Positions 21 through 2,321 of a stretch of 64,000 nucleotides of DNA are shown piece by piece. The notes below the pieces were generated by a model, which saw nothing but the letters and a program-made list of their open reading frames with translations, made no database searches and was not told the DNA's origin. A program made the translations under genes and the position numbers. How positions within the stretch are numbered: the stretch's first letter is position 1; every line of letters starts with the position of its first letter. Origin of the DNA: Candidatus Yanofskybacteria bacterium (lineage in GTDB: Bacteria > Patescibacteriota > Minisyncoccia > 2-02-FULL-40-12 > IGHO2-01-FULL-4-A); the NCBI GenBank assembly GCA_903897805.1, contig CAIUCV010000017.1:5725-69724 (forward strand), read 5' to 3'.

Positions 21-2321
21 ATGCCGAAGAAAAACAAAAAAATCAAAAAACCGGTCAAGCCGAAGAAGAAGATCCCGACTCGCAAAGCGAGTCAAGGATC
101 CTCGGTTTTGCAAAGCAAAATCGGGACGAAAAAAGAGGTCAAAAAAGAAATCAAACCGGAAATGCCATCTGCCCCTGCCAAGGCAGCTAACGGCGAAGGA
201 ACTTATACTGCCAAAGATATTTACGTCCTTGAGGGATTGGAACCGGTCAGAAAAAGACCCGGGATGTACATCGGCTCAACCGGCGTTGACGGTCTGCACC
301 ATTTGATATGGGAAGTTTTTGACAACTCGCTGGACGAGGCAATGGCTGGCTATGCAAAAAATATAGAAGTCACGCTTTTGCCGAGCAACCGAGTCCGTGT
401 AAAGGACGATGGCCGAGGCATCCCAGTGGAAAGACATAAACAAACCGGGGTTTCGGCATTGGAAACCGTGATGACTACCCTCCACGCAGGAGGAAAATTC
501 GGCGGGGAATCATATAAGGTCGCGGCTGGTCTTCACGGTGTCGGCGTTTCCGTTGTTAACGCTTTATCAATATATCTGAAGGCGGAGGTCCATCGGGACG
601 GGGGAGTGTACGAGCAGGAATATGAGCGTGGAGAACCCCAAAAACCAGTTAAAAAAGTTGGCAGTGCTACGGATACGGGGGTAATAGTAACTTTTGAGCC
701 CGACCCTGAAATTTTTAAAGAAATCGCTTTTGACTGGCATCAGATCTTGAACCATATCCGCCAGCAGGCCTACCTGACTAAGGGGGTCAGAATATCCGTT
801 ACGGATGAACGCTCTCCAATCCAGATCCAGGCAACGGAGAAGGGCAAGGAGCACGAGCATGTTGTTCATCCTTCATACGCTTTTTATTTTGAGGGCGGTA
901 TCGTTTCTTATGTAAGTTTTCTTAACAGACACCAGGAGACTACGCATCCTAACATTTTTTATACCGCTAAAGAGCAACAGGGGATTTTCGTTGAGGTGGC
1001 CCTTCAATACACCAATGACATCTCCGGCCACGAATTAAGCTTCGCCAACAACGTCCATACCCTAGAGGGCGGCATGCACCTCACAGGTTTTCGCTCGGCT
1101 ATTACCCGAACATTTAATGACTACGCCCGCAAAAATGGTTTCTTGAAAGAAAAAGACGATAATCTTGGCGGCGAAGACATGCGCGAAGGGCTGACGGTTA
1201 TCGTCTCGGTAAAATTAAGGGAACCGCAATTTGAAGGACAAACCAAGGCCAAACTCGGCACGCCGGAAGCCAGAACCGTCGTTGAAGCGATAGTTAATAC
1301 CGAACTTGCCGACTGGCTGGAAAGAAACCCCAACGACGCCCGCGACATCATGGGCAAGGTGATATTGGCCGCAAAGGCGCGTATTGCCGCCAAGGCCGCC
1401 CGCGAGAGCGTAATCCGCAAGGGGGCACTTGAAGGGTTTACTCTGCCCGGCAAACTGGCTGATTGCTCTTCCAGAGATCCATCCGAATCAGAGCTGTTCA
1501 TCGTAGAAGGCGAGTCGGCCGGAGGTTCAAGCAAGCAGGGCCGTAACCGGAAGACGCAGGCGATTCTGCCGCTTCGGGGCAAAATTTTAAACGTAGAAAA
1601 ATCAAGAATAGATAGAATGCTCGCTTCGGAAGAAATAAGAGCACTGATTATCGCCATGGGCACGGCCATAGCGGAAGAATTTGACTTAAGCAAGCTACGT
1701 TATCACAAAATCGTCATTATGACCGATGCTGATGTGGACGGCGCTCATATAAGAACTCTGCTCTTAACACTATTTTACCGATATTTTTCCCAACTCATTG
1801 AAGCGGGGAATATCTTCATTGCCCAACCGCCGCTTTACCGCATTCAAAGAGGCTCGCACATAGAATACGCCTACGACGAACCGGCAAAAGATAAATTACT
1901 TGAACAATTTAAAAAAGAACCAGGCAAAAGGGACAAAATTGCCGAGGCCGTTAAAATTGCAAAGGTCAAGGATAGTGAATGGGAAATAAGTCCGATAGGG
2001 AGTGGCGATGGAAACGGCCCCGATTCGCAAAGCGAATCGAGGATCCTCGATCAGGACACTGATCGGGGCGAAAACGCAGAGGCCGAAACGATAAAAATTG
2101 CAGGCGTTTCAATTCAACGCTATAAGGGCCTTGGAGAAATGAATCCAGAACAGCTTTGGGAAACCACAATGAACCCGGAAAAGCGCGTATTATTGCAGGT
2201 TACAATGAAAGATGCCGAGGAAGCCGATAAAGTTTTTGACACCCTGATGGGCTCTGAAGTCCCGCCTCGCAAAAAGTTCATCCAAGCCCACGCTAAGAAC
2301 GTGAAAAATTTGGATATATAA
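21..2321 (+). CDS. gyrB: DNA gyrase subunit B, with a Lys-rich N-terminal extension and a C-terminal insertion
   Basis: GHKL ATPase and Toprim motifs are present ([63 protein letters not shown]). The first ~60 aa are K-rich with no counterpart in canonical GyrB. Confidence 0.93.
77..105. repeat. Hairpin (gactcgc-aaa-gcgagtc) plus ggatcc-centred palindrome, copy 1, inside the gyrB N-terminal extension
   Basis: Perfect 7-bp stem with a 3-nt loop, followed by aaggatcctcgg. It is ~86% identical at nucleotide level to the copy at 2022-2050. Confidence 0.6.
2022..2050. repeat. Hairpin (gattcgc-aaa-gcgaatc) plus ggatcc palindrome, copy 2, inside the gyrB C-terminal insertion
   Basis: Same element as 77-105, with compensatory changes that keep the stem (gagtc/gactc becomes gaatc/gattc). 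It is read in a different codon phase from copy 1. Confidence 0.6.

Follow-up and report, generated by a model that had tools for sequence, protein, structure and literature searches.

Why should one gyrB gene carry the same short palindromic sequence twice, and read it in two different frames? The gene opens a 64,000-nucleotide stretch of a Candidatus Yanofskybacteria genome (contig CAIUCV010000017.1, positions 5,725 to 69,724), hereafter the window, and an earlier note made from its letters alone had taken the repeat for a small palindromic element that inserts in frame into coding DNA. The analysis reported here supports that proposal and extends it. We have very little doubt that the two segments belong to a real family of in-frame insertion elements, typically 54 bp long (the 54-mer), and in all likelihood the element is, or recently was, mobile. 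We consider it very probable that it is a miniature, non-coding and non-autonomous insertion element, undescribed as far as we could find and confined to Patescibacteria, the Candidate Phyla Radiation (CPR). Its exact presence and absence between relatives, its occurrence in unrelated genes and in several CPR lineages, its nesting within itself, and its decay in some places are what one sees with a non-autonomous mobile element.

The two gyrB copies and their orthologues

The repeated segments at 77-105 and 2022-2050 are as first quoted, identical at 25 of 29 positions, and each contains a 7-bp hairpin (GAYTCGC-AAA-GCGARTC) whose C/T and G/A differences are compensatory. Both lie in a single gyrB open reading frame (ORF) and in different phases, as the earlier note had claimed: the N-terminal copy (N copy) is in phase 2 and the C-terminal copy (C copy) in phase 1. 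The palindrome centred on GGATCC, ascribed to both, is perfect in the C copy and imperfect in the N copy. The similarity is real, but its extent had been underestimated: the repeated unit is 54 nt long at the N site and 51 nt at the C site, and a second hairpin and a pair of inverted ends (TCCCGA/TCGGGA in the N copy, CCCCGA/TCGGGG in the C copy) had been missed. In the distal stem of this second hairpin the two copies differ wholly in sequence, yet both are paired. Each copy folds as two adjacent hairpins, as RNA or DNA and on either strand (z of -3.2 to -5.6 against shuffled sequence), with a z of about -5.6 for single-stranded DNA. A degenerate 28-mer spanning both copies has only these 2 matches in 64 kb, even at 3 mismatches, where 100 dinucleotide shuffles of the window lead one to expect none by chance; a covariance model built from aligned copies (R1) likewise finds the two gyrB copies only. 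Weak matches to the model at 56224, 15042 and 22754 lack the element ends and were rejected, and neither fuzzy nor exact searches found further copies in the window.

The claim that both sites are insertions is borne out by the nearest GyrB proteins (83-93% identity), which come from Candidatus Yanofskybacteria and other Patescibacteria metagenome-assembled genomes (MAGs) and include orthologues without exactly these segments. Two of them (P0001, from locus L005, and P0006) have neither segment, P0002 and P0003 have the N segment without the C segment, and in P0004 the C segment is a clean 17-residue insertion. Comparison of gyrB DNA for six related loci gives the same picture at nucleotide resolution: filled and empty alleles of the C site differ by exactly 51 nt (the site is empty in L002, L003, L005 and L007), and a third site in the middle of the gene, filled in L001 and empty in the window, shows exact presence or absence of 54 nt. 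Filled and empty alleles reveal no target duplication at either the mid or the C site. We infer that the two gyrB copies are separate insertions rather than a duplication, with local hopping possible.

The gyrB of L003 has one decayed and one intact copy, and the N copies of L001 and L006 hold nested inserts of 33 and 39 nt respectively, both of which keep the frame; that of L006 is itself a shortened family member, and that of L001 (9955-9987) is a GC-rich hairpin. The gene call of P0004 begins downstream of a nested N copy, although an open frame extends from the conserved start MPKKNKK. The N copy lies in an N-terminal extension predicted to be disordered, and the C copy in a predicted disordered linker preceding the C-terminal domain; in the AlphaFold model of the window GyrB, the predicted local distance difference test (pLDDT) falls below 50 at residues 1-84, 275-279 and 634-691, which take in all three insertion sites. 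Inteins with Intein_splicing and LAGLIDADG domains are present in gyrB of L001, L002 and L006 and in gyrA of L029. The coordinates of the window features are collected in Table 1.

Table 1. gyrB of the window, its two element copies and its empty third site (window positions)
Feature	Position	Strand	Evidence or remark
gyrB ORF, 766 aa, host of both copies	21..2321	+	NCBIfam gyrB equivalog match from residue 62 onward
N copy, 54 nt, TCCCGACTCGCAAAGCGAGTCAAGGATCCTCGGTTTTGCAAAGCAAAATCGGGA	73..126	+	Covariance model R1 75.9 bits, E 4.5e-18
Hairpin 1 of N copy, GACTCGC AAA GCGAGTC	77..93	+	
Central GGATCC of N copy	96..101	strand-neutral	Surrounding palindrome imperfect (TCAAGGATCCTCGG)
Hairpin 2 of N copy, GGTTTTGC AAA GCAAAATC, one G.T	104..122	+	Extendable to 101-125
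Empty third gyrB site	844..845	+	..GAAAAGGG|CAAGGAGC.., loop TEKG|KEHEH; 54-nt copy exactly here in L001
C copy, 51 nt, CCCCGATTCGCAAAGCGAATCGAGGATCCTCGATCAGGACACTGATCGGGG	2018..2068	+	Covariance model R1 54.4 bits, E 1.8e-12
Hairpin 1 of C copy, GATTCGC AAA GCGAATC	2022..2038	+	
Perfect 16-bp central palindrome of C copy, ATCGAGGATCCTCGAT	2036..2051	strand-neutral	Equals family consensus; GGATCC at 2041-2046
Hairpin 2 of C copy, GATCAG GACA CTGATC	2049..2064	+	Site-specific variant, also in orthologous L001 copy

The hexamer GGATCC occurs 6 times in the whole window against 14.6 expected, and 2 of the 6 are within the elements; its scarcity may reflect avoidance, for instance through a restriction system, which the element escapes.

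A family of copies, its target and its tolerance in genes

Copies elsewhere, for which the earlier note had suggested a search, exist in about 20 genes. Two scans with degenerate DNA patterns, over species-representative genomes and over metagenome contigs (chance expectation about 0.3 and about 2 matches), returned 5 matches in four CPR MAGs and 25 matches respectively. All but one of the latter are real, the exception (L024) being a chance match with a GC content of 0.70 and no inverted ends. Counting the gyrB loci there are about 28 distinct copies, the real ones all in Patescibacteria/CPR contigs, and the covariance model adds variant, nested and non-coding copies in related loci. Sources include the Hainich groundwater metagenomes, for which metatranscriptomes are reported as well. 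No copies were found in viral contigs with two patterns or in phage and plasmid records with BLAST, and our literature search found no account of such an element in CPR bacteria.

Approximately 26 of the copies are independent genic insertions, and their host genes, mostly housekeeping, are unrelated to one another. By Pfam they encode GyrB and GyrA; the tRNA synthetases IleRS, LeuRS and GluRS and a ValRS-like synthetase; TsaD, DNA polymerase I PolA (two copies), SecA, MurC, a MurD-like ligase and a MurE/F-type ligase; and a copper P-type ATPase (Cu-ATPase), ribulose-phosphate epimerase (Rpe), two nucleases, an O-antigen-ligase-like protein and an FNR-like reductase. One identical 54-mer is found in both LeuRS and TsaD. 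All genic copies are embedded in long open frames and between them use all three phases (with products such as SRFAK.. or PDSQS.SRILD..), rarely also the opposite strand, which bears out the view that conservation acts on the nucleic acid and not on the peptide. Non-canonical lengths within genes (51, 87 and 93 nt) are all multiples of three; of the three non-coding copies, which measure 46, 51 and 86 nt, L007 has two and L033 has one, upstream of fusA.

In L033 (3920-4130) the 86-nt copy, both of whose hairpins contain inserts, lies between the intact fusA start and a duplicate of the 5' end of fusA that is truncated and out of frame; this duplicate is interrupted within the P-loop codons (AHIDA|GKT), and the arrangement looks like a lethal insertion rescued by local duplication. 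In L007 (5298-5555) a group I intron (Rfam RF00028, 50.5 bits), apparently within a tRNA gene, adjoins the two non-coding copies; three direct repeats of the 3' end of the tRNA come after the intron.

The family follows a single plan of near two-fold symmetry, T-CCC-(GAYNNGC-AAA-GCNNRTC)-GA-GGATCC-TC-(GATNNNGC-RAA-GCNNNATC)-GGG-A, and about 24 of the roughly 28 distinct copies are exactly 54 nt long. Unit A (CCC-GAT..ATC-GAGG) and unit B (CCTC-GAT..ATC-GGG, in reverse-complement form) are each a bulged hairpin, such that the 54-mer can be read as two inverted bulged hairpin units sharing the ends TCCCGAT/ATCGGGA. These ends are invariant in 22 of 22 aligned copies and lie outside the search patterns, which in part impose the conservation of the element centre. 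In the alignment 98.8% of stem cells are paired, nine pairs (42 cells) have changed on both sides with Watson-Crick outcomes only, and a single change is one-sided; none of 500 shuffles matched this covariation, and the signal is lost when the partner is slid by 1-3 columns. A further property of the sequence is that 17 of 27 copies are free of stop codons in all six frames; among shuffles the share is 0.6%, and among random palindromes of matching composition 11%. No Rfam family was matched at E<=1 in window positions 1-2400, and no Pfam or NCBIfam model, of the Rickettsia palindromic element (RPE) domain or any other, matched the peptides that the element encodes.

The target is conserved mainly on one side. 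In the orientation of the element the 3' flank has C at +1 in 27 of 29 cases, A at +2 in 18 of 29 and A at +3 in 22 of 29, with a weakly biased 5' flank; since C-A-A is seen in empty alleles it is part of the target. The empty Cu-ATPase sites read AAA|CATGC and show no target duplication, and nested copies sit in the GC|AAA hairpin loops of other copies, again just 5' of CAAA. When the variable hairpins and loops were compared by eye with the target flanks for guide complementarity no consistent match was found, the only pattern being a likeness between the loops (GC|AAA|GC) and the preferred target. The element enters DNA as an exact 54-bp block, without target duplication and directly 5' of C-A-A, and would be mobilised by an enzyme acting in trans that recognises its folded hairpin ends in single-stranded DNA. 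By analogy, this enzyme could be of the 'peel-and-paste' type known from the insertion sequences (IS) IS200/IS605 and from repetitive extragenic palindromes (REPs) with their transposases (RAYTs), a suggestion that we regard as possible but somewhat doubtful; the likeness lies in the lack of target duplication, the short one-sided target, and subterminal hairpins in which pairing rather than sequence is conserved.

Within genes, copies of a length divisible by three are retained where they fall in flexible, hydrophilic loops, and many insertion sites lie between protein domains. Read from its sequence, the largely stop-free element would simply add about 18 residues to the protein on translation. 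The strand with the A-rich loops is the coding strand in 24 of 26 independent insertions (p ~1e-5). Translated in its three phases, the sense strand gives more hydrophilic peptides than the antisense strand does, and protein-level filtering is therefore sufficient to explain the strand bias.

The 54-mer is one of several small in-frame elements in these genomes, as the palindromic inserts of L022 and L001 make clear. Some of its copies stand in a recurring mosaic made of a variable hairpin, three tandem heptamers (CAATTTC, CAATTAC or NACTACY), the 54-mer and about one more heptamer, which was found in IleRS, GluRS, TsaD, LeuRS and three other ORFs (L022, L030 and L037). At L022 651-720 a palindromic CCCGAAGGAGTCGCTTTGCGACCCTACGGG stands between AAATCAC heptamers. 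Heptamers also occur in the window without the 54-mer, as AACTACT x3 in frame in a UvrD-like helicase (34020-34039; QTTNYSLR) and as AATTTTC x4.3 in frame in an Lnt-like protein (36959-36988; NFQFSIFK). A 65-nt palindrome of CTAGTTT-type units at 36403-36467, in frame in the KsgA (RrnaAD) ORF 35806-36666, may be another kind of small in-frame insert, and in the nusB-rnc spacer (15155-15267) GCCCCGGGTCCCAATTGGGAC is enclosed by an inverted repeat whose AATTTCTAA-type units resemble those flanking the element in L009.

Conservation at shared sites and the rival explanations

A number of observations weigh against the interpretation as a mobile element. Firstly, the search for a mobilising enzyme was negative: neither Pfam searches of about 55 ORFs in the window (about 6% of a genome) nor tblastn over 366 kb with an IS200 TnpA query gave a transposase or a RAYT, and neither solo half-elements flanking a gene nor a full-length partner were seen in related loci. 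The GTAG and CGTC tags by which the known REP super-families are recognised (PMC3733652) occur neither in the consensus nor in any of the 22 aligned copies, and copy density is low, at 2 in 64 kb. Secondly, L011 carries two copies on opposite DNA strands, each sense to its own gene, which, as a single case, argues against an orientation bias directed purely by the replication strand in the manner of IS200.

Thirdly, copies at the same site are conserved to a degree that decaying, plain selfish DNA would not show. At the gyrB N site there are 2-6 differences in 54 nt against a divergence of 0.26-0.41 at 4-fold degenerate sites, and at the C site 3 differences in 51 nt against 0.30; in the Cu-ATPase there are 0-4 differences in 54 nt against a 4-fold divergence of up to 0.51-0.67, between proteins down to 57% identical. 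In the Cu-ATPase alignment the element appears as a block of identity amid codons with variable third positions, with indels directly upstream. The few same-site differences are of three sorts: changes in loops, G.T transitions, and compensatory pairs, which are T1-A51 against C1-G51 at the C site of gyrB and, at the N site, T-A against C-G in hairpin 2. Moreover, one special subtype is found at an identical Cu-ATPase bond in three lineages that are not sisters. Of the 120 closest clusters only 4 have the element, and the three lineages that bear it are each nearer to element-free sequences than to each other. The Cu-ATPase of L028 is farther from every other member of the set than those are from one another.

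Two ready explanations fail. Concerted evolution is excluded because the site-specific subtypes are common to orthologous copies and not to the copies of one genome. Transfer of a patch by recombination was rejected for the Cu-ATPase, where the flanks beside the copies are fully diverged and there is no co-transferred tract. The pattern demands either repeated, highly site-specific insertion of the same subtype or selection at the nucleotide level with many exact losses. We therefore put forward, tentatively and as something short of likely, that the 54-mer is more than decaying selfish DNA: either a gene-less 'homing' hairpin element, which re-inserts at the same phosphodiester bond of orthologous genes in divergent CPR lineages (AAR|CATGC of the Cu-ATPase, and the gyrB sites) and whose choice of target might be encoded in its variable hairpins, or an element kept by nucleotide selection because its DNA or RNA, once folded, is of some use to the cell. 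Either option, if true, would be new behaviour for a miniature element inside essential genes. Near-identical copies at the same site in genes with saturated synonymous sites, whether produced by site-specific re-insertion or by selection on structure, thus present a testable puzzle.

The strongest rival to a mobile element holds that the sequence is, or has become, a cis-acting nucleic-acid structure selected by the host in its coding regions and maintained by purifying selection at the nucleotide level. It might act in mRNA, as a double hairpin that governs the pace of translation or the stability of the message where domains meet, or in DNA, as a hairpin, a cruciform or a 16-bp palindrome to which a protein binds. 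Such a function is compatible with an origin by insertion, and it would account for the excess conservation in gyrB and the Cu-ATPase over 4-fold sites, the confinement of same-site differences to loops, compensatory pairs and G.T transitions, the sharing of subtypes between orthologues, the sense-strand bias and the many sites between protein domains. It is nevertheless rather unlikely in our estimation: presence and absence vary between very close relatives; the bearers among the Cu-ATPase clusters are few and not monophyletic, so that a functional element of ancient origin would have had to be lost exactly on very many occasions; the host genes are unrelated; some copies are nested, decayed or non-coding; the single mismatches of the sense strand, C.A in 4 cases and G.U in 4, give no RNA-specific signal; and no Rfam family matches.

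A mini-intervening sequence or translational bypass ('hop') element, conserved because the host protein needs it removed or skipped, would have parallels in phage T4, whose gene 60 contains a 50-nt gap, and in the 'byp' inserts of mitochondria. Its compact hairpin structure and its conservation in situ in essential genes, like that of introns and inteins, fit this idea, as does the fact that gyrB and gyrA also host inteins, but we judge it very improbable. The genic copies are all open in the host frame, and non-canonical lengths within genes are multiples of three, a rule that non-coding copies do not follow; this is expected only if ribosomes read through. Nor was a take-off/landing codon pair or a stop codon seen at the 5' edge, and the sites are disordered loops in which about 18 extra residues are harmless.

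An event internal to gyrB (intragenic duplication, gene conversion or a repeated GyrB peptide motif) might be suspected from the presence of both window copies in one gene and of none elsewhere in 64 kb, but it deserves almost no credence: the two copies are in different phases, the element occurs in some 20 unrelated genes of several CPR lineages, and each gyrB site is independently empty in relatives, observations on which intragenic duplication and a peptide repeat were rejected. Chance resemblance or an assembly or linker artefact, which the common linker site GGATCC (BamHI) at the centre and the chance match L024 might bring to mind, is equally negligible given that no chance matches are expected, that the stems covary, and that the same in-frame copies recur at orthologous sites in independent assemblies from NCBI, ENA and JGI.

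Known elements and the surrounding region

Placing a mobile 54-mer among known systems is instructive for what it shares with several of them and for where it departs from each. MITEs, miniature transposable elements with inverted repeats, make target-site duplications and derive from an identifiable IS. The 54-mer has no known parent IS, and its filled and empty sites in gyrB (mid and C) and the Cu-ATPase differ by the element alone, without duplication. Like MITEs such as Correia/NEMIS, RUP and ERIC, it is non-autonomous, ends in terminal inverted repeats (TCCCGAT/ATCGGGA), fuses in frame with ORFs and nests (PMC10969869); MITEs, however, are 70-300 bp long with terminal inverted repeats of 15-30 bp (PMC3733652), whereas the ends of the 54-mer are of 7 bp.

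RPEs are likewise palindromic, non-coding repeats found in frame in unrelated housekeeping genes of a small-genome bacterium, translated as an extra peptide at structurally tolerant sites and with no associated transposase known (PMC10969869, PMC3733652). As described by Ogata et al. (2000), they are about 100-150 bp long, form about ten families, have CGTC ends and are restricted to Rickettsia (PMC10969869, PMC3733652). The 54-mer shares with them the central trait of in-frame palindromic insertion, with its roughly 26 independent genic copies all in open frames, but it does not belong to any RPE family: it is 54 bp long, lacks CGTC/GACG at its ends, and its peptides have no NCBIfam or Pfam match. 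It also has a fixed two-hairpin plan around GGATCC, no sequence relation and a Patescibacteria host, and it is used in three phases where RPEs are described as encoding a conserved peptide.

REPs, with their composite forms BIME and REPIN, are short imperfect palindromes that often form inverted doublets, as units A and B do. They are thought to be moved by a RAYT, a Y1 (HUH) transposase specific for single strands (PMC3733652), and some are intragenic, among them one at about the same site in recB across Xanthomonas species (Di Nocera and colleagues, PMC3733652). The 54-mer differs from REPs in being a fixed 54-bp doublet, mostly genic rather than extragenic and low in copy number. RPEs together with intragenic REPs (PMC3733652) are its functionally closest parallels.

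The likeness to the IS200/IS605 family, in turn, is one of mechanism. IS608 and ISDra2 insert without target duplication next to a short, conserved, one-sided target and have subterminal hairpins. All three traits are seen in the 54-mer, and its C-A-A corresponds to a position 3' of T-T-G on the other strand. Against this, its hairpin units are inverted rather than direct, its target spans only some 3 nt, the searches described above revealed no TnpA, and its orientation may, to judge from the single case of L011, follow the host gene rather than the replication strand. Integron and chromosome-dimer sites can be set aside: attC sites have the core R''/R' RYYYAAC...GTTRRRY and dif sites an 11-6-11 consensus, and neither motif is present in the 54-mer consensus, whose copies are dispersed in genes and form neither arrays nor a single terminus site. 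The Magnusiomyces 'byps', whose lengths are not divisible by three, are bypassed, whereas the 54-mer keeps the frame. Finally, there is a likeness of form to mitochondrial hairpin elements: the double-hairpin elements of Allomyces, the GC clusters of yeast and the repetitive hairpin-forming elements of sponges are 30-80 nt long with one or two hairpins, and spread in compact mitochondrial genomes, occasionally into rRNA or protein genes (PMC2800124); they differ in being organellar and mostly intergenic, and have no sequence relation to the 54-mer.

The 54-mer would stand as an independent example in small-genome bacteria of a very different group. It accounts for some of the odd lineage-specific insertions in CPR proteins, is a source of errors in annotation and alignment (such as one mis-called gyrB start beside a nested copy), and illustrates how a sequence can be constructed so as to be tolerated whatever the reading frame. 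To our knowledge, at 54 bp and with so strict an architecture, it is the smallest of the in-frame insertion elements of this type.

Between 51264 and 56178 of the window, the minus strand carries jag, yidC and rnpA and the plus strand dnaA and dnaN, from which the chromosomal origin is probably near 53.2-53.5 kb, about 51 kb from gyrB; the GC skew of the window is flat and uninformative on the direction of replication. Two long ORFs, 28688-30910 (741 aa) and 40318-42633 (772 aa), have no Pfam match, and the first of them includes a Thr/Pro-rich nucleotide repeat at 30173-30322. A VirB4/TraG-like ATPase is encoded at 45439-47217.

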